A stretch of 64,000 bases of DNA from a virus (lineage: Duplodnaviria; Caudoviricetes). Positions 52,705 to 62,813 of this stretch are shown piece after piece. The stretch spans positions 1 through 64,000 of IMG/VR virus record IMGVR_UViG_3300005805_009498; one strand, written 5' to 3'. The notes beneath the pieces were generated by a model. That model did not search any database. It was not told the origin of the DNA and saw only the letters and a program-made list of their open reading frames with translations. Made by a program: the position numbers and the translations under genes. How positions within the stretch are numbered: the stretch's first letter is position 1; each line of letters begins with the position of its first letter.

Positions 52705-52738
52705 AAAAAATAAAGGGCGCTTTTGCGCCCTTTATTTT
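52705..52738 (-). terminator. Intrinsic (bidirectional-looking) terminator ending the modification operon
   Basis: AAAATAAAGGGCGC-TTTT-GCGCCCTTTATTTT inverted repeat with A/T tracts on both sides. Confidence 0.85.
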
Positions 52739-53091
52739 ATCTTTATCACTTGATCGACGTGTTTGTGTAGCCTCTTCAAAGAATCGTTGTCCAACAAAAA
52801 GGATTTCTTTATCTCTATTTCAAGAGACAACAGCTCCTTTTTTATGTTTTTCACCAGTTCAACCGATATTGAGGGGTTGATATACTGAATGCTACTTTTC
52901 TTTTTCTTTTTGGCAAACTCAAATTCTTCCTTTAATATTAGATTCATAAGGTAAACAGAAGTGTTTTCCATCTGTCCGTCTGAATTCTTTTTCAATCTTA
53001 GAAGTATTTTGTTTACATCTATGACATACGGTTTGGATCCCGTAGCGTACTTCGGTGCGTTGGATTTCTCCTTAGAAAAAATCAGGTTCAT
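52732..53091 (-). CDS. Hypothetical basic protein
   Basis: Overlapping operon member; K-rich. Confidence 0.65.
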   Translation of the reverse strand: MNLIFSKEKSNAPKYATGSKPYVIDVNKILLRLKKNSDGQMENTSVYLMNLILKEEFEFAKKKKKSSIQYINPSISVELVKNIKKELLSLEIEIKKSFLLDNDSLKRLHKHVDQVIKIK

Positions 53092-53525
53092 TTACTTAAT
53101 TTTTTACTTTCAATCTTTTCTTGAACTTCCATGTTTCTTTCCATTATCTCTGATACCTTTTCCTCAGAATATCCTTTTTCCAAAAGATGCGCAGCGATAG
53201 ATTCGTTTCTTAGATCCATGGATTTTCTAATGTTTTTTATGACTTCCTCGGTGTTTGATGCATGAAGTTGTTTTCCGTTCTGTATGTTATTCTTTATGTT
53301 TTCAAACCAATCCTTATATCCTAATCGATTCTTTAACTTTATGTATCCGCTTTGTTTTAACAAGGATCTTCTAAACTTTCTATTAAACGTCATGTTTGAG
53401 AATAACGAAGTATCAAAATCATCCTGAATAGCTGGATCTGGCTGTTCAACGCTTAGATCGATCTCTTGGACCGGGTTTTCTTGTTCTATGTTGTTTTCTT
53501 CCAAAACCTGTGTTTCCTCGTTCAT
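53088..53525 (-). CDS. Hypothetical protein
   Basis: ATGA overlaps with both neighbours. Confidence 0.7.
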   Translation of the reverse strand: MNEETQVLEENNIEQENPVQEIDLSVEQPDPAIQDDFDTSLFSNMTFNRKFRRSLLKQSGYIKLKNRLGYKDWFENIKNNIQNGKQLHASNTEEVIKNIRKSMDLRNESIAAHLLEKGYSEEKVSEIMERNMEVQEKIESKKLSK

Positions 53526-54094
53526 TTCTTTTCTCCGTAAATTTTTGTTATTGAATTTTTTATGGCGTTATTTATTTCTTCCTTGGATACCGATTCTACT
53601 ATTATATCTATCACCTCATTGACTGTAGACTCATCAAAGGTTTCGTTTATCATCTTAAAAAATGACTTTGTCGGTAAGTTTATTTCCAATTCTATGGGAA
53701 CGATCTCTGTACTTTTTTTGGATCTTAATAGTAGATCGGACGAGAACGTTCCTCTACTCTTTTTGCTCTGCGTTTCCGTTGGTTTTTCTTTGACTCTTTC
53801 CAGGCCTAACATTGCCATGTGTTGGTCAGGAATGGCTGATTCGCTTTTAACCCTTTTTTGTTTTAAAACCTCGGGACTCTCAATTGGGTACATCATGTCC
53901 AAATCTATTCTGCCTAAAGCGTTTTCCTTTGTTGGAATAACGATGAAGTCCTTTCCCAATTTTGACATCGGAATCCTTTGACCGTTGGAAAGAACAGCAA
54001 AATCCTCAAAAGTTTGACTGTCCTGTGTTAGTTCAACCGGTTCAACATTTCCTCTGTTTGATCCTATTATCCATTGTAAGTATTGATTATTCAT
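53522..54094 (-). CDS. Hypothetical protein
   Basis: Overlapping operon member. Confidence 0.7.
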   Translation of the reverse strand: MNNQYLQWIIGSNRGNVEPVELTQDSQTFEDFAVLSNGQRIPMSKLGKDFIVIPTKENALGRIDLDMMYPIESPEVLKQKRVKSESAIPDQHMAMLGLERVKEKPTETQSKKSRGTFSSDLLLRSKKSTEIVPIELEINLPTKSFFKMINETFDESTVNEVIDIIVESVSKEEINNAIKNSITKIYGEKK

Positions 54095-54398
54095 CGAAGA
54101 GCGTTATTATATTTTCTTGATAAAACTTTTTTCTATCTTCCTGCATTGTATCTATGGTGTTGGTTATCATTTCCTTAAGAAATTCTAGATTTTCTTTAAA
54201 GAATATGTTTACCCCTCTTTTAGAGACATCGTCGGAATTTGATGTGAAGTTTTTTGGAATCTCGTTTATTCTCCAAAACAATAGTGGACGACAATCCACA
54301 AATTTTATGTTTACCTCTTTCCATCCGTTTGGCTTTACGGTTATCGTTTCACAAAGATCCCATTCTATGTCGTTTTCAATCTTGTAGTCTATCTTCAT
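54087..54398 (-). CDS. Hypothetical protein
   Basis: Overlapping operon member. Confidence 0.65.
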   Translation of the reverse strand: MKIDYKIENDIEWDLCETITVKPNGWKEVNIKFVDCRPLLFWRINEIPKNFTSNSDDVSKRGVNIFFKENLEFLKEMITNTIDTMQEDRKKFYQENIITLFDE

Positions 54399-55093
54399 GC
54401 GTTAATTCCCCCTATTACCCTTGGCCAATAAACATCTGGGGATATTCCCATCAACTGTATCACCAATTCCAATTCCTTATCGGCGTTAAGACCATTAGGA
54501 AGATTCCAATGATGGCTTTCTACCGGTTTCACGTGAGAGGCTTTAACATCGTCTATTATAGCAAGTCTTTCGTAATTAAGTTCCCTTGCCCATAGATAAT
54601 CTTGCGCCCACCCTGAATATGTTATGGTGAATGTTCCAAGAACACGTCTTAGCGCCGATGTCTTAAACAACGGACACATTATCTCAACATAGTTTGTGTA
54701 TCTAATGAACTTGGTTTGATCGTTCAATACTAATGGAAAACTATAGTAACTGTCATGGGTTAACGATGGCTGACATATATTTAGATTATAATCCTGCGCA
54801 ATCGTAAACAATCTAGCTATCTCGGTTGGATCAAGATGAACATCGTAATCAGGCATCCATATCCAATCATACTGATCGAGTATGTCGTACTTTTCGATGA
54901 ACCTCTTGTATATGTGATGTTTGTACCCTTTGTCTTTCACATAATACTTTGCTGTTCCATACACCTGAGGATCGTCGTTCCATTCGTCAGGGTTGAAATT
55001 TATAAGAGCAAGATCAAATCCGCATAGTTTAAAGTCTTTGTCGTTATAAAATCCCCCCTCGGCGCTTGTAGCTATGACGAGGTTTCTTTTCAT
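54395..55093 (-). CDS. DUF707-family GT-A glycosyltransferase-like protein
   Basis: YDWIWMPDYDV, NICQPSLT, YTNYVEIMCPLF, SGWAQDYLW. Confidence 0.8.
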   Translation of the reverse strand: MKRNLVIATSAEGGFYNDKDFKLCGFDLALINFNPDEWNDDPQVYGTAKYYVKDKGYKHHIYKRFIEKYDILDQYDWIWMPDYDVHLDPTEIARLFTIAQDYNLNICQPSLTHDSYYSFPLVLNDQTKFIRYTNYVEIMCPLFKTSALRRVLGTFTITYSGWAQDYLWARELNYERLAIIDDVKASHVKPVESHHWNLPNGLNADKELELVIQLMGISPDVYWPRVIGGINA

Positions 55094-55329
55094 TGCTGTG
55101 TTTGTTCTTCTTGCTGCTGTGTAGCGTTTACCGATTCTACAGAGCGATCAGGTCTAAAAAACACTATTGCATCATAAATGATCTTGGCTTCTTGAATTGA
55201 ATATGCGCCAAGTCTTGTTGCGTGTTCTGCCGCGTTTACGAGAACGTTTATCGCCTTAGCTGGATCGTCTATCACATACGCAGGTGTTTGTGGACGTTCT
55301 GGTTGCGGTGTTTGTTCGGTTGTTTCCAT
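55090..55329 (-). CDS. Small hypothetical protein
   Basis: GAGG SD; overlaps the gp42 stop and the DUF707 start. Confidence 0.7.
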   Translation of the reverse strand: METTEQTPQPERPQTPAYVIDDPAKAINVLVNAAEHATRLGAYSIQEAKIIYDAIVFFRPDRSVESVNATQQQEEQTQQ

Positions 55330-56177
55330 TATTCCTCTACGAAAAATTTGTTAAATATGTCGATGTAATCTTGTGTTTTAAGAACCGAAAAATCTTCTAT
55401 AGATTCCATGTGTTCGTTAAAACGCTTTGCTTGTATTGATATTCCAGTATTTGGATCAAAGATCGGCTTAGTTATCTTTAGCTCTATATCATTATTTGAA
55501 TTTGGATTTTCCTTTCTCAATTCTTGTACCAGAGAGAAATGTCTCTCGTAATAATGAGTATTATCAGAGCAATGATAGTAGGTTCCAACTTCGAGTTCGT
55601 TGTATTTTTCCTTTAGAAGAAGGTACATCGATTGATAAACAACAGAAAAGAACGGCGCATCGTATTGAAGACCATAGAATATGTCGTTTGATCTCATCTG
55701 TACCTTCATGTTTAGCTTATTATCTCTTATCCAAAAGTTCATATACATTGTACAAACGAAATCCTTAACACCTTGACGTTGATACGCCGGTGTATTAAAA
55801 ACCATTATGGCTTGACGCGTAGATTTGTCGTTAATAAGGGCATCATAGGCCCACTTGAACTGGCTTTTGTTTTGTCTTGAATTTATGATGTATCCGTAAT
55901 TGGAATTAACACGGTTAAACTCATCTACCAGACTTTTCCAAAAGCTAGAAAATTCGTTGATTCTATTTATGTTTGTATCTTCACACAGATACCACCATAA
56001 TTCTCCTATGAAATACTTCCAATTAAAAGCCTTGCTATCGAAGTTCATGAGAGGGTATAACGGATCGAACTCAAGGGTGGTAAGATACTCTTCTACGACC
56101 TTTAATCCTCTTGGTGAATCTTCGGTTTCCATCCTTGAAAGGAGAGACAGAACTTCGCTGTTTAGGGTTTTTTTCAT
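55329..56177 (-). CDS. gp42: dCMP hydroxymethylase-type thymidylate-synthase-family enzyme (T4 gp42-like)
   Basis: GELWWY, VNSNYG, KDFVCT, IRDNK, MRSNDIFYGLQYD (Asp at the dUMP/dCMP specificity site), HYYERHFSLV. Confidence 0.85.
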   Translation of the reverse strand: MKKTLNSEVLSLLSRMETEDSPRGLKVVEEYLTTLEFDPLYPLMNFDSKAFNWKYFIGELWWYLCEDTNINRINEFSSFWKSLVDEFNRVNSNYGYIINSRQNKSQFKWAYDALINDKSTRQAIMVFNTPAYQRQGVKDFVCTMYMNFWIRDNKLNMKVQMRSNDIFYGLQYDAPFFSVVYQSMYLLLKEKYNELEVGTYYHCSDNTHYYERHFSLVQELRKENPNSNNDIELKITKPIFDPNTGISIQAKRFNEHMESIEDFSVLKTQDYIDIFNKFFVEE

Positions 56178-56215
56178 GATTGATTTATACGTCCTTTAAA
56201 CTTGCTTGGTTATAC

Positions 56216-57268
56216 CTAAAATAAAGCGATGATTTTTGTTTTTCTCGTTGGTTTTCCTGTTTCAAAATCATACATGTATGAGTGTCTGGATAGATGTACG
56301 GATCCAGGTTTTTCCATACACTGTTCCGCGTATTTTTCAGGGTCCATCACATACCATTCATCTGGCCACCTAATGACCATATAATCATGGTCGTAAGAGA
56401 AATCGCTAATAAGTCTATTGAATTCCTTTACCGCATCTGATCTTTGTTGTCTTGTTCCGAAAAAAGGAGATCCTTTATACCATCCGGTTTTTGGGATCTT
56501 CCTTTCTTCGTGTTCTATGGGAAGAAGAGAAACCAACCAGACATTTTCTATTCCTCTATTGTCTTTAAGATCCTTTGCAAACTCTGCATATCTTTTAGCA
56601 AGATCAAGCAACGACGCCATTGGATCTTCCTGTCTAAAAATATGATGCCTAACGTCTATGTTACCCATGTAAAGGATCACGTTTTTGGTTCCTTCAGGGA
56701 AATTAAATTGATCCTTTTTGTTTAAAAACCCGTGTAAAGTTTGGCCATCGTTCCTGCTAATGTTTGCCCCTGGTTCATAGATAGAGACAGCATGACTGTC
56801 CCCATAGATGAAGGTTTTACTGTTAAGAACAACATCAATTCGAGGAATGGACTCTGATATGGACTTATATCGTGAGGCGTCAAGTTCAACCCACTCTTCG
56901 CATGCGCCCTTTGCTCTTGAATTTATGAATTCACCGATATCAGGCATATCGTGATTCAATATGAATATTTTTCCTTTAAATGATTCTAGCCTTTTTACCC
57001 TGTCTGCTACTTCCTTTGTTGCTCCTCCAAATAAGTTGAAAGTTCCTTGAAACTCCATAGGAAGAAGTATCAACCAAACATCGTAATTATGAATGTTATC
57101 GTCCTTAGTAAGGACATCGCATTCTATTTCAAGGCTGTTTAATTGACAGCGTATTAGATATGGCCAGGAGGATTTGTGGGATTCTTTTTTTCTGCTATAT
57201 GACGTAACAACGTCGTCTATGGCAATCCTTTTTCCCCTTAGATCATCAAGAGCATCATATATGTTCAT
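56216..57268 (-). CDS. Hybrid protein: T4 beta-glucosyltransferase-like N-terminal domain + SGNH hydrolase/acyltransferase domain
   Basis: N-term KRIAI...NYDVWLIL...FNLFGG...FKGKIFILNHD; C-term FIYGDSH, DGQT, YMGNID, GSVHLS. Confidence 0.65.
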   Translation of the reverse strand: MNIYDALDDLRGKRIAIDDVVTSYSRKKESHKSSWPYLIRCQLNSLEIECDVLTKDDNIHNYDVWLILLPMEFQGTFNLFGGATKEVADRVKRLESFKGKIFILNHDMPDIGEFINSRAKGACEEWVELDASRYKSISESIPRIDVVLNSKTFIYGDSHAVSIYEPGANISRNDGQTLHGFLNKKDQFNFPEGTKNVILYMGNIDVRHHIFRQEDPMASLLDLAKRYAEFAKDLKDNRGIENVWLVSLLPIEHEERKIPKTGWYKGSPFFGTRQQRSDAVKEFNRLISDFSYDHDYMVIRWPDEWYVMDPEKYAEQCMEKPGSVHLSRHSYMYDFETGKPTRKTKIIALF

Positions 57269-57270
57269 CT

Positions 57271-57537
57271 TTATTTCTTCTCGTTATGATAGTTCTCTAA
57301 ACCTTGGATGTATGCGACAGCATCTAAAAGATTATCCCTCTTATGCTGATAGCTCTCTCTGGAAAATTTAAGGGCTATGAGGGCCTTAAACATGTGATCC
57401 GCGCTAAGGTTCATCCCTGTCATACCGTTAAATATCATTGCGGCCCTTTCCATACCTTCGCTAAATGGGCCATATTGACGATCGGCTTCTTCCGATCGAT
57501 TGTTAACTATTTCTTCTGCTTGTGTTAATATGCTCAT
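57271..57537 (-). CDS. DUF6378-like all-alpha protein (possible nucleotide pyrophosphohydrolase); start revised to 57537
   Basis: ILTQAEEIVN..R...YGPF...AAMIF...LIALKFSRE...KRDNLLDAVAY. Confidence 0.75.
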   Translation of the reverse strand: MSILTQAEEIVNNRSEEADRQYGPFSEGMERAAMIFNGMTGMNLSADHMFKALIALKFSRESYQHKRDNLLDAVAYIQGLENYHNEKK

Positions 57538-57567
57538 AGATTTATTATACATTGTTAGATAGAATTG

Positions 57568-57999
57568 TTATTTATCATAGCCGTTTTCGTTTATCCATCG
57601 CAAATACTTTTTTAGTTCCTTGTCCTCTACCGTTATGGAATATACGCCCTGTTGAAATATCTTCCATGAATCCGAGGCGTACTTTCCCACTCCAGGAAGG
57701 GATTCAACGGAATTTCCATCCCAATTTAACCATTTTTCAGAGAATTTTTTCCACATCTTTGCCCTTCTATTGTAAAATCCTAGAGGCCTTATTATGGATA
57801 TGATTTCCTCATCCGTTGCAGAACAAAGAGATTTTGCATCAGGAAAACGAGAGAAGAACTGGTTTCTTACCTTATCCACTTGTTTGTACCCGGTCTGATT
57901 AAGCATCATACAAACCAGGAGCATCTTCCATGGGTCGTCTTGATAGATTTCTTGACGATATTTAAAGGGACTGGTAGGGGGCTTTGTCGTTTTTTTCAT
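57568..57999 (-). CDS. Stand-alone MBD4-like HhH-GPD DNA glycosylase (143 aa); start revised to 57999
   Basis: QEIYQDDPWKMLLVCMMLNQT, IIRPLGFYNRRAK, HhH LPGVGKYASDSWKIF, VEDKELKKYLRW. Confidence 0.85.
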   Translation of the reverse strand: MKKTTKPPTSPFKYRQEIYQDDPWKMLLVCMMLNQTGYKQVDKVRNQFFSRFPDAKSLCSATDEEIISIIRPLGFYNRRAKMWKKFSEKWLNWDGNSVESLPGVGKYASDSWKIFQQGVYSITVEDKELKKYLRWINENGYDK

Positions 58000-58005
58000 G
58001 ATTCT

Positions 58006-58014
58006 AATATATAG
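58006..58014 (+). promoter_or_regulatory. Candidate late-promoter motif AATATATAG between divergent genes
   Basis: Lies in the 29-bp gap between the divergent starts at 57999 (-) and 58029 (+); TATATA core is self-complementary. Confidence 0.45.
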
Positions 58015-58028
58015 AAAAACTATATCTT

Positions 58029-58346
58029 GTGAAAACTTTTTTACAGATAAAAAGCATAAACGAATCGAAAGAAGGATACCAGGCATTAAAAGATCTAAAT
58101 AGATTACATAAGTTAGAGCTTGAGATACAGGATATCCAAAGAACGGTTGTGGAACTATTGGATAAGGCAAAGAAATATAAGATTGGAAGCAAGGAAAGAG
58201 AAAAGTTGGAAGAAAGAATGTTTAAGTTTATCGAAGAGAAGAAAAGCATTCAGGAAGAGATAGATTACGAAATTAGAATTTTTAAGCGCTCCATTGCTTT
58301 AATTGACACGGATGGACACTTAGACGTAGAAGATTTTTTTAATTAA
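58029..58346 (+). CDS. Small coiled-coil protein, possible internal head protein
   Basis: GTG start; N-terminus MKTFLQIKSINES resembles a capsid-targeting/cleavage sequence. Confidence 0.6.
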   Translation: MKTFLQIKSINESKEGYQALKDLNRLHKLELEIQDIQRTVVELLDKAKKYKIGSKEREKLEERMFKFIEEKKSIQEEIDYEIRIFKRSIALIDTDGHLDVEDFFN

Positions 58347-58358
58347 AAAACCTTAAGT

Positions 58359-58952
58359 ATGCCAGCAAGATCACAACAACAACAAAAAATAATGGGTTTA
58401 GCCCTTGCGTTCAAAAGAGGAGAAGTTCCATCTTCTGAAGTTAGCGATAAGGTTAAATCATTGGCAAAAACCATGAGCATGAAAGAATTAGAGGCTTATG
58501 CATCTACAAAGCATAAAGGCCTTCCAAAAAAAGTAAAGGAGTCAACAATGAACACACCCGGTTCTAAATTATCAACATTCGTTCAATTTATGCGCGAAAA
58601 AGAAGAAGACGTAGAAGACGTTGAAAAAATGGACAACGATGCAGAGATGGTCGATGATACAGACGTTGATGTGGAAATCGATACGGATGATGAAATGACC
58701 GGCGATGAGAAGATGATAAGTGTAAGATCTAGCTCTCCGATGAAACCGGTAAGAAACAAACATTCTTACGAATGGAGCGAGCCAGAATCAAAGATGATAC
58801 AGTATCAGTTAAAAAACATCATTGAAAATGCAGAGGAACTTATTCAGCTTGTCGAAGGCTGCGATGAAATTGAGGATTGGGTTCAATCAAAGGTTACCCT
58901 CGCAGATGATTACATCTCTACCCTAAGGGATTACATGAAACACAGGGACTAA
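58359..58952 (+). CDS. DUF3008-like N-terminal domain fused to acidic linker and a putative head-protein domain
   Basis: MPARSQQQQK...KRGE...MSMKELEAYASTKHKGLP; C-term EDWVQSKVTLADDYI. Confidence 0.65.
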   Translation: MPARSQQQQKIMGLALAFKRGEVPSSEVSDKVKSLAKTMSMKELEAYASTKHKGLPKKVKESTMNTPGSKLSTFVQFMREKEEDVEDVEKMDNDAEMVDDTDVDVEIDTDDEMTGDEKMISVRSSSPMKPVRNKHSYEWSEPESKMIQYQLKNIIENAEELIQLVEGCDEIEDWVQSKVTLADDYISTLRDYMKHRD

Positions 58953-59085: not shown

Positions 59086-60921
59086 TTAGACTATACCTGC
59101 TGCAGGTGTTTCAACCCAGAATGTGTAGTATTGAGCTTCTGGATAGAATCCAGCGTCAACAAGAGCGTAACGGCTCTTAACAGCAATCTTAGGTGACATT
59201 GTTCCTTCAGCGATAGTGCTGATCGACTCCGCCATGAGGTAAGGCATGAACTTGATGCCTGGCTCGATGTCAGCGCCCTTACGACCAACGAGGATACGTG
59301 TATCGTTCCATGTCATGTTAGGATCAACGTAAACTGTCATTCCGAACAGCGTTCCTGCTGGATACAGCTGGCCGCTTGACTGGTTTAGGGTGTTATCGAA
59401 CGGAGCAAGAGAGAATCCCTTAACGATGTTGAGGGCCGAAAGCACCTGAGCATTTGTGACAACGAAGTTCGCTGGGCCACGACGACCACGTGTGTGGATC
59501 AGGTTCGAAGCCGCATGGATCTTGCTGACGATGCGCTGTTGTGCTGTCGAGAGGTTCTCGAAGTTTCCGTAATCTGCGTAAGCTGGGATGTTGTTTGTCC
59601 ATGAAAGCGCAGTGTTTGACTTACCAATGTACGATGACGTTGTTGCTGATACTGTCTGTGTTGGATCAAGCGAAAGGTTAAGTGTGAAACCTTGCGTTTG
59701 CTTAACATCGTAGTTGTTCTGCCATCCGAGTGCGAACGCGCGAGAAAGGATGTGCTTGTTGATCGACTGTGAAACTTCGTTAACAAGTACGCCTTCTGCC
59801 ATAGCGAGGATATCGATACCAAACTGGCGGTTCATGTCCTGGATTTGCTCAGTTGTTACGCTGATCGTTACCTGGAATGTTCCAGCTTGTACGTTCTTTG
59901 TGAACGTTTGGATACCCATTGCACGTGGATATGTTTCTTCTCCAGTTCCACGGCTCATAGGATCGTATGGCTTTGTTCCGTCTGTGAACGGTCCGTTCCA
60001 TGTGTTTGTATCATCTGCACCAGCTCCAGAGAAACCATAGATGTGATTCTCAAGGGCAGAAACATAACCTGGACGGAAAGGAGCGCCTGTTGTTCCATTT
60101 CCTGAAGCGTACGCTGTATCGTTTGGTTGACCCGAAGTTTCACCTACGATAGAAGAATACGTAGTGCCAGAACCAACGCCAAACGCATCAGCGATAGTTA
60201 CTGTGTTTGGATTTGTGCTAGCCTGATAATCAAGCGCAGAATCAAGCACACCAGTTGAAACAACCTTGAAAATTAGATCGCCCGTTACGAACGACTTACC
60301 AACATAAACAAGCTTTGCTGCGTCGCATTCTGCAAGTGTTACCTCATAGTCTGTTGTCTTTGAAGTATCAAGCGATGCCTCAAGAGGAACAGCATAGTAT
60401 GTAGATCCAACAGTTAGCTGTCCAGTATCTCCATCGTATACCTCAGTTGCAGGCATGCTAATCATGAGCGGCTGTGTCTTGTTTGCATCTTGACCTGATG
60501 TTGCGTAATCAAGCTTACCACCTGCATAGATGTAATCTAGATAAGGAAGGATTCCCGTCGGTCCTGGCATAGGTATAACAGAGACGATGTCGAAACCGAC
60601 TGTCTTTGCAGCAACCTGGATTGCCAAAGGAAGAAGCGATGGGAACTTATCACCTGATCCCTGATACGATGTGTTGTAAAAGTTAGCAGGCGTTACCATT
60701 GCTGTACCGAGGTTAACCGGTCCTTGACCAGGAACGTTAACAAGTTGAGCAAGACCAGTTCCCTGGAATGACTCGTTCATTGTGAAGCTTTCGTTCATCT
60801 GGTGGTAGTGGCAATACTTAGAGAGCCAGTTCTTCTTGTAACCTTCCTTGACTCCAACGGACTCAAGCATAGGCGACCACTCGTTGATGATCTGTGCTTC
60901 GTTCAAAAGCTGTAGATTCAT
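59086..60921 (-). CDS. gp23: Major capsid protein (T4 gp23-like)
   Basis: EWSPMLE, LLPLAIQVAAKTVGFDIVSVIPMPGPTG, RGRRGPANFVVT, GIKFMPY, PKIAVKSRYALV. Confidence 0.97.
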   Translation of the reverse strand: MNLQLLNEAQIINEWSPMLESVGVKEGYKKNWLSKYCHYHQMNESFTMNESFQGTGLAQLVNVPGQGPVNLGTAMVTPANFYNTSYQGSGDKFPSLLPLAIQVAAKTVGFDIVSVIPMPGPTGILPYLDYIYAGGKLDYATSGQDANKTQPLMISMPATEVYDGDTGQLTVGSTYYAVPLEASLDTSKTTDYEVTLAECDAAKLVYVGKSFVTGDLIFKVVSTGVLDSALDYQASTNPNTVTIADAFGVGSGTTYSSIVGETSGQPNDTAYASGNGTTGAPFRPGYVSALENHIYGFSGAGADDTNTWNGPFTDGTKPYDPMSRGTGEETYPRAMGIQTFTKNVQAGTFQVTISVTTEQIQDMNRQFGIDILAMAEGVLVNEVSQSINKHILSRAFALGWQNNYDVKQTQGFTLNLSLDPTQTVSATTSSYIGKSNTALSWTNNIPAYADYGNFENLSTAQQRIVSKIHAASNLIHTRGRRGPANFVVTNAQVLSALNIVKGFSLAPFDNTLNQSSGQLYPAGTLFGMTVYVDPNMTWNDTRILVGRKGADIEPGIKFMPYLMAESISTIAEGTMSPKIAVKSRYALVDAGFYPEAQYYTFWVETPAAGIV

Positions 60922-60941: not shown

Positions 60942-62813
60942 TTATAATTTACCAATTAGACTCTTCTTAACCTGTTCGATATAAGAAGAATTGTTACCCT
61001 TCACGGACTCAATTGTGCTGTAAGGATTTACAGATTCGTTGAGGGTTTCCGTGACGTTTCCATTGAAGTTGACAACGTCAGGCCTTGTGGCCCAGAAGTT
61101 CCTTATCTGATAAGGCGTATCAAGCTTTATGTATTGAGCCTGGGACGCGATACGACGACGGCTTTCCTCTGAGAGGGATTCCCAAATAGGAGCGTACTCC
61201 GTTGGCATTTCCTTTATCCACTTTGGAAGACTTGCCTTCTTCCTCGATGCAGAAAGCGAAGATTCCCAAATGTTCACAACGTCCTTCTCCGTAAAGAATA
61301 TCGAGTTACTCATTGCCTCATTGACTATCTCTTTTTCAGTCAGCGGCAAGTCTATGAACTTCTTCCTTCTTTCTGGTGAAAGCAGTCTTAAGAACGGGAA
61401 CTTTGCTGATTCATTCAACGTCTGAACCTTCTCTTTTTTGGCTTCAGCTATCAAATGATTTACCTTTTCGGAAAGATTATCACCGGCCAACATTGATGCC
61501 TGTTTTTCTTTCCTCTTCTTAACCATTTTCTTTTCTTTTTCATTTATAGATTCAACAACGTAATCCGAATATTGTATGGCCTTGTCTGTCTGTTCAGCAA
61601 CATATTCGGTGTATCCTATAGAATGGTTTACCGCTTCTGCAAGATAATCGTTGTGCTTGATAGAAAGATCCAGATTTTCTCCTAGGTATTCGGAATAACC
61701 TATAGAATCGTTTAGATTCTCTGCCAGATAGTTTCCGTATTCTATTGAATCTTCGACCTTTTCTGCCAGATAATTACTGTAATTTATGTTTTGGTTTACC
61801 TTCTCTGAAATGTAGTTAGAATAAGAGATGTTCTTATCTAGATTTTCAGCGAGATAGTTTTGATAGCTGTCAGAAAGATTCAATCTCTCGGCTATGTAGT
61901 TTGAATAATCTATTGTGTCCGTCACCTTTCTCTTGAGCTTATTGACAGAGCTAATATTCGTGTCAACATTCTCTGAAAGATAGTTACAATAGTTTATTGT
62001 TCCATTGAGCTTCTCCGCAAGATAGTTTGTGTACTCTATCAACTTCGCCATGTTGTCGTCGTTAGAAGAAGCTCTGTTAACTCTCTTTATAAGACCCGAG
62101 AGTTTCTTCTCGAGTAATTCGATCTCTCTCTTAACAAGCTTTGAATACTCGTTGAGCTCAGAGACCTTTACCGTATCATCCTTTGGATTTGAGCCCATAA
62201 CTTTGTTATTTTTTTGTTGTTTTGTTTTTTCAATATCGCTAAATAATGAGCCCGGATCATACATCTCCGAAACATCATATATGTGTATGTTTGATTTTGC
62301 AGAAAAACCTAGAGATTCGTTCACCAGTGAAAGCTGAGCGTTTTCAAATCCTGGGTCTGCGACTAGATCGTAAGTAAATATTTTCTTAAGTTTGACCTTT
62401 TTATCTGAGCCAACCGTTCCTGCCGCCCTTGATGAAATCGAAAGAGGAACTCCCGCTTCAACCAATCGTTTTGCGGTGATTCCTGCATCTGTGTTTAAGA
62501 GTCTTACCTTGCCCTTAAGACACCTTGTTGACTTATCGTATTCAAGATTTTCTATTATGTGAGATACCTTTTGCAGAGAAACATCAAACTTCTCTGGATG
62601 GTCCAATTCTCCCATAAGTCTCTTTGACTTTATCTTATCGCGAAGATAATCGAGGTGTGGAAGGTATTCGTTTTCCTCGTATATCCTATCGTTGTTATTT
62701 ACAACTCCAAACTGGGCAAATATTCCCTCTAGAACTATATCTCCGTTGCCTTCGTTCTTGGATTCGAGGATTGAACTGGAATTTTCCAGTATTAAAAGAA
62801 CCTTTTGATCCAT
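60942..62813 (-). CDS. gp21: Prohead protease (gp21-like) fused to a 14-aa-repeat scaffold domain
   Basis: VLEGIF...NNNDRIY, LMGELDHP, GVPLSISSRAAG, TYDLVADPGF; then about ten Y-x-x-YLAE-x-L repeats. Confidence 0.92.
   Translation of the reverse strand: MDQKVLLILENSSSILESKNEGNGDIVLEGIFAQFGVVNNNDRIYEENEYLPHLDYLRDKIKSKRLMGELDHPEKFDVSLQKVSHIIENLEYDKSTRCLKGKVRLLNTDAGITAKRLVEAGVPLSISSRAAGTVGSDKKVKLKKIFTYDLVADPGFENAQLSLVNESLGFSAKSNIHIYDVSEMYDPGSLFSDIEKTKQQKNNKVMGSNPKDDTVKVSELNEYSKLVKREIELLEKKLSGLIKRVNRASSNDDNMAKLIEYTNYLAEKLNGTINYCNYLSENVDTNISSVNKLKRKVTDTIDYSNYIAERLNLSDSYQNYLAENLDKNISYSNYISEKVNQNINYSNYLAEKVEDSIEYGNYLAENLNDSIGYSEYLGENLDLSIKHNDYLAEAVNHSIGYTEYVAEQTDKAIQYSDYVVESINEKEKKMVKKRKEKQASMLAGDNLSEKVNHLIAEAKKEKVQTLNESAKFPFLRLLSPERRKKFIDLPLTEKEIVNEAMSNSIFFTEKDVVNIWESSLSASRKKASLPKWIKEMPTEYAPIWESLSEESRRRIASQAQYIKLDTPYQIRNFWATRPDVVNFNGNVTETLNESVNPYSTIESVKGNNSSYIEQVKKSLIGKL

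Follow-up and report, generated by a model that had tools for sequence, protein, structure and literature searches.

We analysed a 64-kb window of a tailed-phage genome (Caudoviricetes; IMG/VR record IMGVR_UViG_3300005805_009498, positions 1 to 64,000), which makes up the initial 64 kb of a viral contig of 72,446 bp with a CheckV completeness of 24%. On its minus strand the window carries a cassette of ten open reading frames (ORFs; g1 to g10, 52732-57999), the third of which, g3, encodes a hybrid protein that joins a lobe resembling the acceptor domain of the T4 DNA β-glucosyltransferase (BGT) to a lobe of the SGNH hydrolase/acyltransferase fold. The hybrid and its upstream neighbour, a DUF6378 protein encoded by g2, are the constant core of g3 loci, and in the window they stand next to a DNA glycosylase (g1) and a thymidylate synthase (TS) homologue with the signature of a 5-hydroxymethyl-dCMP (5hm-dCMP) synthase (g4). 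We consider that g1 to g4 probably form a DNA-modification and repair module centred on 5-hydroxymethylcytosine (hmC) and, with somewhat less confidence, that the cassette as a whole is best explained as a self-sufficient unit that provides the phage DNA with a modified cytosine.

Folds and catalytic residues of the core proteins

In an earlier note, drawn up from the letters of the window and its ORF translations, g1, g2, g3, g4 and g6 had been labelled as an MBD4-like glycosylase, a DUF6378 protein, a hybrid of a BGT N-terminal domain and an SGNH domain, a gp42-like dCMP hydroxymethylase making hm-dCMP and a DUF707 glycosyltransferase. The label of g3 was confirmed by structure prediction and fold search, and those of the other four are borne out by the matches described below, that of g6 over part of the family profile. 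An AlphaFold (AF2) model of the whole 350-aa g3 protein, computed from an alignment of 31 homologues, has a pLDDT (predicted local distance difference test) of 89.4, and the N-lobe modelled separately has one of 90.9. Structure and profile searches identify in residues 1-148 (56825-57268, minus strand) a Rossmann-like lobe similar to the acceptor/DNA domain at the N-terminus of T4 BGT, while structure search assigns residues 149-350 (56216-56824, minus strand) to the SGNH hydrolase/acyltransferase fold, with a disordered tail ending in KIIALF.

When the N-lobe was compared with 48,161 chains, T4 BGT ranked first (1c3j, Z 6.8, root-mean-square deviation (rmsd) 3.1 Å over 106 residues, within BGT 1-164); the next match had a Z score of 5.8 and the T4 alpha-glucosyltransferase one of 5.2. 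Foldseek likewise placed BGT at rank 1 (1qkj, E 6e-3, probability 0.99). Alignment of a profile of 32 N-lobes to T4 BGT (NC_000866) with hhalign gave a score of 34.0 (E 1.6e-4, probability 50%), about six standard deviations above the scores of 60 shuffled BGT sequences (mean 13.9, standard deviation 3.3, maximum 27.3), in a register that lays g3 NLFGG on BGT NFFGG and DYDVWLI on DYDRLIV. Because the three methods, each modest in itself, agree on the protein, the domain and the register, we regard the N-lobe as quite likely homologous to the acceptor lobe of BGT. The likeness is invisible at the level of plain sequence: a sequence search of the PDB with g3 returned only a chance match to a pectate lyase (E 0.43). 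Two Atlas look-ups gave no structures and only the families of the query proteins themselves.

The C-terminal part, residues 146-349, matches SGNH esterases and acyltransferases with Z scores of 13.1-10 (2hsj, 3mil, 7pzg, PatB 7tjb, 8zbc). The best match is 2hsj (Z 13.1, rmsd 3.1 Å, 170 residues), other matches include sialate and xylan acetyl-esterases, PatB, Ape1, TesA and the acyltransferase 8zbc, and the closest structural relatives are carbohydrate acetyl-esterases (Foldseek E 3e-5). The lobe has the flavodoxin-like fold of SGNH enzymes, the block I serine in a GDS(x) motif (GDSH), the block III asparagine in a GxND motif (GNID) and the block V histidine (SVH). Invariant in all 31 homologues are G156, D157, S158 and H159, R172 and D174, G202, N203 and D205, E319, and S323, V324 and H325. 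As the SGNH fold takes the place of the C-terminal, UDP-glucose-binding Rossmann domain of BGT, g3 lies outside the BGT family. Among longer fused forms of g3 we found one protein of 713 aa, which has no recognisable extra domain.

At the extreme C-terminus of g3 (window 56216-56240) the sequence TRKTKIIALF follows a low-confidence linker, with pLDDT below 50 for residues 344-350, and LF forms the C-terminal end in all 14 of the 14 homologues with 46-73% identity. The C-terminal DNA polymerase B fragment of a 260-kb relative of the window (L108:697-1902, minus strand) ends in TTKRLF. The LF ending common to g3 and the polymerase fragment may be a tail that docks onto the sliding clamp.

The 282-aa product of g4 (55329-56177, minus strand) is a TS homologue (PF00303, E 3e-22) whose best solved relative is the T4 dCMP hydroxymethylase gp42 (1b49, E 3e-20), true thymidylate synthases matching at E 1e-13 or weaker. 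Its motifs, KDFVC...MRSNDIFYGLQYD, read KDFVC...MRSND...GLQYD. The catalytic cysteine of KDFVC aligns with T4 C148 (the E. coli C146 position), the L143 region reads KDFVC in g4 as against SDFMC in T4 and ALPPC in ThyA, and GLQYD aligns with T4 GFRND (D179) and ThyA LPFN. In E. coli ThyA numbering g4 thus has Asp at L143, Cys146 present, D169 kept and Asp at N177, the same as T4 gp42. According to the residue rules of a 2026 paper, N177D denotes dCMP as the substrate, an acidic residue at the L143 position (water access) goes with hydroxymethyl, not methyl, products, and D169N marks the newly found 5-hydroxy-dCMP synthases of the RB69 gp48 / DLP3 gp80 type, with Asn in all tested ones (PMC13326640). 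By this signature g4 is a 5hm-dCMP synthase, its activity being predicted from residues: every residue that separates 5hm-dCMP synthases from ThyA and from 5-hydroxy-dCMP synthases is present. The candidate assignment of g4 as a 5-hydroxy-dCMP synthase was rejected because MRSND keeps the Asp at D169.

It would matter for g3 if g4 instead made 5-methyl-dCMP or another C5 derivative, in which case the DNA would contain bases of the 5-methylcytosine type and g3 would be left without a hydroxyl target. The XP12-type dCMP methylase has Asp at the N177 position and a product other than hydroxymethyl, which counts for this possibility, as do the 5-hydroxy-dCMP synthases among the TS homologues with Asp at N177 (PMC13326640). 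Yet L143 is Asp as in T4 gp42, which correlates with hydroxymethyl and not methyl products, and D169 is kept where the tested 5-hydroxy-dCMP synthases all have Asn, so that we consider a product other than 5hm-dCMP very improbable.

The first gene of the cassette, g1 (57568-57999, minus strand), encodes a stand-alone HhH-GPD DNA glycosylase of 143 aa (Pfam PF00730, E 6e-11) that matches the glycosylase domain of MBD4 (1ngn/4ew4) with E 1e-23 over residues 5-139, that is 135 residues and the whole catalytic domain. The catalytic Asp is kept in the sequence GKYASDSW, and as in MBD4, the mammalian G:T, G:U and G:hmU mismatch glycosylase, there are no Fe-S cysteines (the sequence has two Cys). Unlike MBD4, g1 stands alone without a methyl-CpG-binding domain, and the Arg of the 'LNRT' motif is Gln. 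Since MBD4 removes T, U and 5-hydroxymethyluracil (hmU) opposite G, repair of deaminated hmC would by analogy be the natural reading of g1.

Between g1 and g3 lies g2 (57271-57552, minus strand), whose 93-aa product matches DUF6378 above the Pfam cut-off (PF19905, E 3e-9). The family shows 42 invariant columns among 20 homologues, and between the window and the 260-kb relative DUF6378 is 77% identical, compared with 46% for g3. In a profile search of 1.8 billion representatives, DUF6378 domains were found fused to a TS homologue, dUTPase, PRA-PH/MazG-type pyrophosphatases and a HAD hydrolase, which points to an accessory domain of deoxynucleoside triphosphate (dNTP) metabolism. A profile search of the PDB gave only chance matches to RRM domains. 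DUF6378 as a dCTPase was considered and rejected, as it occurs as a fusion partner of MazG-type and dUTPase domains, not in their place, and no similarity to them could be detected.

Distribution and neighbourhoods of the hybrid

The g3 family comprises more than 212 clusters at 90% identity, with relatives on at least 583 IMG/VR contigs; in 73 of 86 loci the gene directly upstream of g3 encodes a DUF6378 protein. When the genes lying no more than 7 kb from g3 were clustered for 81 loci, three layouts emerged. In the first, DUF6378 and g3 are accompanied by a myo-inositol-1-phosphate-synthase-like gene (45 loci), a 132-aa gene, an FkbM methyltransferase (34 loci), a gene resembling the 5-hydroxymethyldeoxyuridine (5-hmdU) DNA kinase (32 loci; PF18723, E 7e-16), a 155-aa gene with a faint match to the gp56 family, DNA polymerase B and ribonucleotide reductase; these loci hint at a kinase-dependent, inositol-related cytosine modification. 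The second consists of DUF6378, g3, a gene of about 400 aa (27 loci), a pyridoxal phosphate (PLP) enzyme (18 loci; PHROG 'threonine dehydratase', E 3e-34) and a polymerase. The third, found in the clade of the window, contains the glycosylase, DUF6378, g3, the synthase, a 79-aa gene, DUF707 and four unknowns; it is kinase-less and located in the structural region. The kinase-like gene and the ~400-aa gene never occur in the same g3 locus. Every g3 context concerns DNA, nucleotides or sugar nucleotides, and none was a tail-fibre or lysis context.

Neighbourhood and genome searches show that phage lineages far apart from one another combine the hybrid with cytosine-type synthases and with DNA glycosylases. 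Each hybrid-carrying genome that is complete enough has a cytosine-type synthase gene, those of 44RR and IME13 included. A cytosine-type TS homologue, with Asp at both diagnostic sites, adjoins g3 in one locus (L006), lies within 3.5 kb of it in two others (L005, L058), is present in cassette relatives (L003, L011, L097) and occurs elsewhere on G001 (234 kb) and G002 (149 kb), the two contigs of greatest length in a different g3 subgroup. Homologues of g1 with 53% identity stand directly upstream of the hybrid in two loci (L004 and L060) where g3 is 38-39% identical and the surroundings differ, and in L005 (8819-9715) a 298-aa fusion of a dNMP/thymidylate-kinase-like P-loop domain with a glycosylase of the uracil-DNA glycosylase superfamily is encoded two genes upstream of the g3 homologue. 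Genomes of one subgroup with the first layout (L034:11099-14649; also L041, L069 and about 40 other loci) were seen to carry a cytosine-type TS homologue as well.

Cultured phages carrying g3 include the phages 44RR, 31 and 25 of Aeromonas, which have genes 42 and 56 but no glucosyltransferase, and for which a 2010 review left another hmC modification open (PMC2993671). In 44RR2.8t, g3 forms the N-terminal half of the 795-aa ORF233c (L002:5013-7400), whose 455-aa C-terminal half matches PF18723 weakly (E 9e-4), and the gene adjoins that of a sodium:solute symporter. In phage IME13 (L103:1285-5062) the gene of a bona fide UDP-galactopyranose mutase (E 6e-54) is found at a distance of two genes from g3. 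Each of the three complete cultured genomes tested has a divergent TS homologue as its second, with the gp42 signature in 44RR2.8t and IME13 and the D169N signature in Tenacibaculum phage PTm5. IME13 was further noted to have gp42 without a known glucosyltransferase. PTm5 (L116:1444-2121, L102:6004-6993) has a distant g3-like gene with 23% identity between ribonucleotide-reductase genes; its divergent TS homologue reads EYPC...RSNN...LD, that is D169N, the signature of 5-hydroxy-dCMP synthases, and the match contains one TAA.

Proposed chemistry and competing explanations

Building on the folds, catalytic motifs and gene linkage observed, we propose a pathway in which g4 would convert dCMP to 5hm-dCMP using methylene-tetrahydrofolate, kinases encoded elsewhere would raise the product to the triphosphate, and the polymerase would incorporate hm-dCTP. 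The BGT-like lobe of g3 would then bind the duplex and present the 5-hydroxymethyl group, or a sugar carried by it, to the SGNH lobe, where Ser158 and His325, with Asn203 forming the oxyanion hole, would transfer an acyl group to the hydroxyl via an acyl-enzyme. The acyl group would most likely be acetyl, the donor a thioester such as acyl-CoA and the product an ester-type base, for example 5-acyloxymethylcytosine; g6 would be the likeliest source of the sugar, if there is one. In this pathway g2 would act as the obligate partner of g3, tying it to the dNTP-synthesising or replication machinery, and g1 would deal with the deamination product of the modified cytosine by excising 5-hydroxymethyluracil (or U/T) where it stands opposite G. 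We are fairly confident that g3 acts on DNA. That it catalyses O-acyl transfer, with the hydroxymethyl group or a sugar attached there as acceptor, is a tentative proposal in which we infer substrate, donor and product; it is favoured because the Ser/His/Asn machinery is complete, the enzymes of most similar fold act on acetyl esters or acyl-thioesters, and the window holds nothing recognisable that could displace an ester.

As the main alternative, g3 might catalyse an intermediate step, either esterifying the hydroxymethyl group as a displaceable leaving group or hydrolysing an ester intermediate, so that the final adduct would be the DUF707 sugar or a group supplied by g5 to g10 and the acyl group would be gone from virion DNA. 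SGNH enzymes are mostly esterases, and the second layout offers a setting for such a step: the ~400-aa protein follows g3 in 27 loci, 18 of these with the PLP enzyme and the kinase-like gene unseen, a logic that resembles the succession of kinase, transferase and PLP enzyme in thymidine hypermodification (PMC8989533, PMC11472151). However, the ~400-aa protein was not recognised by Pfam at all, and thus not as an amino-acid:DNA transferase, and g3 occurs together with the kinase-like gene in 32 loci, so that it is not just a substitute for the kinase. Moreover, the window and the syntenic 260-kb relative (G006, 88% complete) lack the ~400-aa protein, the PLP enzyme and the kinase-like gene and hold nothing recognisable to displace an ester. 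We judge an intermediate role for g3 to be unlikely.

A further explanation places g3 and g6 on carbohydrates, in the O-acetylation, de-O-acetylation or glycosylation of virion proteins or host glycans, leaving only g4, g1 and g2 to nucleotides and DNA and making the cassette a mixture of late accessory genes in the structural region. The cassette is indeed located between structural genes, those of the major capsid protein and of a gp13-like neck protein, the nearest structures to the C-lobe are carbohydrate acetyl-esterases, DUF707 relatives are found in glycan clusters, and GT2 and dTDP-sugar-isomerase genes stand close to the capsid genes of the 260-kb relative. Against this, the best structure and profile match of the N-lobe is the T4 DNA glucosyltransferase and not a carbohydrate-binding module, and most lineages place g3 in a replication/nucleotide module with DNA polymerase B, ribonucleotide reductase and the DNA-kinase-like gene. 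The hybrid is paired with DUF6378, a domain fused to dNTP enzymes, it adjoins DNA glycosylases, and it has neither a signal-peptide-like sequence nor a tail-fibre context. An action on carbohydrates therefore appears decidedly unlikely.

Several observations nevertheless weigh against the proposed pathway, whose chemistry we infer. With Z 6.8, 15% identity and an hhalign probability of 50%, the likeness to BGT is modest, and lobes of the Rossmann-like type are common. Asp100 of BGT is reportedly the catalytic base; g3 D107 comes to stand opposite it only when the alignment is extended by hand, one residue past the end of the hhalign match (g3 106/BGT 99), and the position is variable across the g3 family (D, E, Q, N, S or P). 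In the SGNH lobe the block V Asp (DxxH) is missing, MEKPGSVH having Gly at -3; the invariant E319 may substitute for it, and SGNH enzymes with a Ser-His dyad exist. As SGNH enzymes are mostly hydrolases, g3 could also remove a group rather than add one, and its coexistence with the kinase-like gene in 32 loci means that it does not simply provide the step activating the hydroxymethyl group. A TS homologue was not found in five g3-bearing fragments, which at 30-43% completeness are uninformative.

The supply of the modified nucleotide raises further difficulties. The earlier note had the operon clean the dNTP pool, which the searches do not support. Profiles of the dCTPase, MazG and dUTPase families (PF08761, PF01503, PF00692) had no match in the 72-kb contig, which is 24% complete, and PF08761 and PF01503, the two profiles searched there, had none in the 88%-complete relative; DUF6378 is tied to dNTP enzymes by its fusions only. 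The hmU-DNA-kinase-like gene (PF18723) was absent from G000, G006 and G007 and present in G001 and G002 as well as in 32 other g3 loci. Because neither dCTPase, MazG or dUTPase genes nor the kinase-like gene was found, full replacement of cytosine is not assured. In addition, distant DUF707 relatives sit in glycan rather than DNA clusters, and g5 to g10 are conserved inside one clade only. As that clade also keeps the flanking neck and capsid genes, the synteny of g1 to g10 is no proof of a common function. Co-conservation, which the earlier note had proposed to check by a gene-neighbourhood survey, thus holds for the DUF6378 and hybrid core, which recurs across lineages, and not for g5 to g10, which are linked by clade synteny alone.

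In comparison with the T4 hmC pathway (gp42, gp56 dCTPase, gp1 kinase, alpha- and beta-glucosyltransferase), the cassette shares a gp42-type synthase with the same diagnostic residues, an acceptor lobe resembling the BGT N-domain, and the adjacency of synthase and DNA-decorating genes, T4 gene 42 being followed by b-gt. It differs in that the SGNH lobe replaces the UDP-glucose-binding lobe, for which reason g3 cannot transfer glucose from a nucleotide sugar by the BGT mechanism, in the added MBD4-type glycosylase and DUF6378 protein, in that a gp56-type dCTPase was not found, and in its location in the structural region. With the thymidine hypermodification clusters of M6, ViI, PaMx11, PhiW-14 and SP10, which comprise a dUMP hydroxymethylase, a 5-hmdU DNA kinase, amino-acid:DNA transferases and PLP enzymes, it has in common that a hydroxymethyl-pyrimidine is made before replication and would be decorated on DNA afterwards, and the g3 genes of other phages adjoin PF18723 kinase-like and PLP-enzyme genes. 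In contrast to these clusters, the synthases linked to g3 are of the cytosine type (Asp, not Asn, at N177), and the window has neither a kinase-like nor a PLP gene. The SGNH O-acetyl esterases and transferases (sialate O-acetylesterase, acetylxylan esterases, PatB/Ape1, TesA) share with g3 the fold (Z 10-13) and the Ser, Gly, Asn and His blocks, but at 9-19% identity, whereas g3 is fused to a DNA-glucosyltransferase-like lobe, lacks the DxxH Asp and occurs in the context of DNA and nucleotide metabolism.

The decoration of a hydroxymethyl-pyrimidine on DNA is a known type of pathway, while the hybrid enzyme, its DUF6378 partner and the kinase-less DUF707 layout are not known. To our knowledge, all described hmC decorations are sugars, bar one carbamoyl case. 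This case, 5-carbamoyloxymethylcytosine, is an earlier example of hmC in environmental phage DNA bearing an O-linked group that is not a sugar; in the MetaGPA study describing it, SGNH, GDSL, DUF707, DUF6378 and glycosylases go unmentioned (PMC8670742), and PMC8989533, on thymidine hypermodification, is likewise silent on an SGNH/BGT-like hybrid. Our literature search found no description of an SGNH/GDSL or BGT-like/SGNH enzyme, of DUF6378, of DUF707 or of an hmC-specific kinase in DNA hypermodification, and no paper describing the combination of genes, which the earlier note had not recognised among described pathways either.

Taken to its full extent, the proposal would make the hybrid and DUF6378 a new class of DNA-modifying system that flips hmC out of the duplex and esterifies it, yielding the first ester-type (acyloxymethyl) DNA base, and that protects the hmC of the Aeromonas phages. 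It would form the core of at least three cytosine-hypermodification pathways, of the DUF707/sugar, the inositol-synthase and DNA-kinase, and the PLP-enzyme types, in hundreds of aquatic phages. We regard this extended version as speculative and, in its entirety, rather doubtful. Hypermodifications of phage DNA decide which restriction, CRISPR and glycosylase defences work, and they have also yielded tools such as T4 BGT for hmC mapping. If a BGT-type lobe binding hmC-DNA were indeed combined with acyl-transfer chemistry, this would constitute a new type of reaction on DNA and a possible reagent for hmC labelling, and g3 would be the long-sought hmC-protecting activity of the glucosyltransferase-less Aeromonas phages 44RR, 31 and 25. 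The prediction is directly testable, since the family occurs in these cultured and easily grown phages with gp42 and without glucosyltransferase. The window offers the simplest g3 context observed, without kinase, transferase or PLP enzyme, and hence a good source of genes for reconstitution.

Remaining cassette genes and genomic setting

The 232-aa product of g6 (54395-55093, minus strand) matches DUF707 (PF05212), a family of putative GT-A-like glycosyltransferases, with 26.9 bits against a cut-off of 24.1, over profile positions 91-155 of 299 only, about a quarter. Its Atlas neighbours are viral DUF707 clusters (77-86% DUF707) and clusters annotated 'glycosyltransferase', and the family is narrow, with 42 clusters. 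Distant homologues occur in a viral region (L100) among GT2, GT_PLOD, sulfotransferase and methyltransferase genes and in a Rhizobium plasmid region (L101) among Glf, GT25 and pyruvyl-transferase genes. From these matches it is plausible that g6 is a glycosyltransferase, whose acceptor could be DNA, protein or a glycan.

The other five genes, all on the minus strand, had no match in Pfam, PHROGs or NCBIfam and belong to no family. They encode an acidic protein of 79 aa (g5, 55090-55329; found in L003, L011/L095, L096 and L097), proteins of 103 aa (g7, 54087-54398), 190 aa (g8, 53522-54094) and 145 aa (g9, 53088-53525), and a basic protein of 119 aa with a pI of 9.7 (g10, 52732-53091). Of these, g5, g7, g8 and g10 are confined to the clade of the window, and g9 is present in L095-L099 and absent from the 260-kb relative (L003/L054). 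The order g1 to g10 recurs in a 134-kb contig (L097) and in L095, L096, L098 and L099, and without g9 in L003.

Successive genes of the cassette are spaced by +15, +2, +38, -1, -4, -4, -8, -4 and -4 nt, and an intrinsic terminator closes it (52707-52738, minus strand). The GC-rich hairpin, with a stem of 14 pairs (6 G-C) and a 4-nt loop, reads AAAGGGCGC-AAAA-GCGCCCTTT on the minus strand and is followed by the T-run ATTTTTT; it starts at or overlaps the stop codon of g10, with the start of the gp13-like neck gene about 15 nt beyond. The ORF coordinates and the hairpin with its T-run agree with the description, in the earlier note, of ten co-oriented genes separated by at most 38 nt and ending at a strong terminator. 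As the genes of the window are almost wholly on the minus strand across 64 kb, this packing and co-orientation are unremarkable, and it is the gene content that exceeds chance. The cassette has a G+C content of 37-39% compared with 41-42% on either side, and its first gene starts 29 nt from a divergent, conserved 105-aa gene.

The window derives from a lake-water, Lak-like giant phage: its major capsid protein (59086-60921, minus strand) shows 38-42% identity to the counterparts in Lak megaphages and in LR756500.1, an uncultured phage of 462 kb, and near-identical DNA was found by a sequencing-run search only in lake-water metagenomes of one 2016 study. No match to the cassette was obtained by blastn among 50,697 phage records, and within 8 kb on either side the TS homologue is all that LR756500.1 has in common.

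No Shine-Dalgarno-like sequence precedes the first cassette gene (TATATATTAGAATC-ATG, window 57990-58040), which would fit a host independent of Shine-Dalgarno pairing, such as the Bacteroidota that Lak phages infect. Between the capsid gene and the cassette lie two plus-strand genes, encoding a coiled-coil-like protein of 105 aa (58029-58346) and a DUF3008 protein of 197 aa with an acidic tail (58359-58952). Both are kept in the 260-kb relative, and homologues of the DUF3008 protein are found 1.4-5 kb upstream of g3 in 33 loci. The prohead-protease (S77-like) gene (60942-62813, minus strand) runs on into repeats of about 14 residues (..NYLAEKL..SNY..) and looks like a protease-scaffold fusion. 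In the 260-kb relative, which also carries the GT2 and dTDP-sugar-isomerase genes mentioned above, the family-B DNA polymerase is split into an N-terminal part of 461 aa (L107, at about 142 kb) and a C-terminal part of 401 aa (L108, at about 250 kb), which lie about 108 kb apart.

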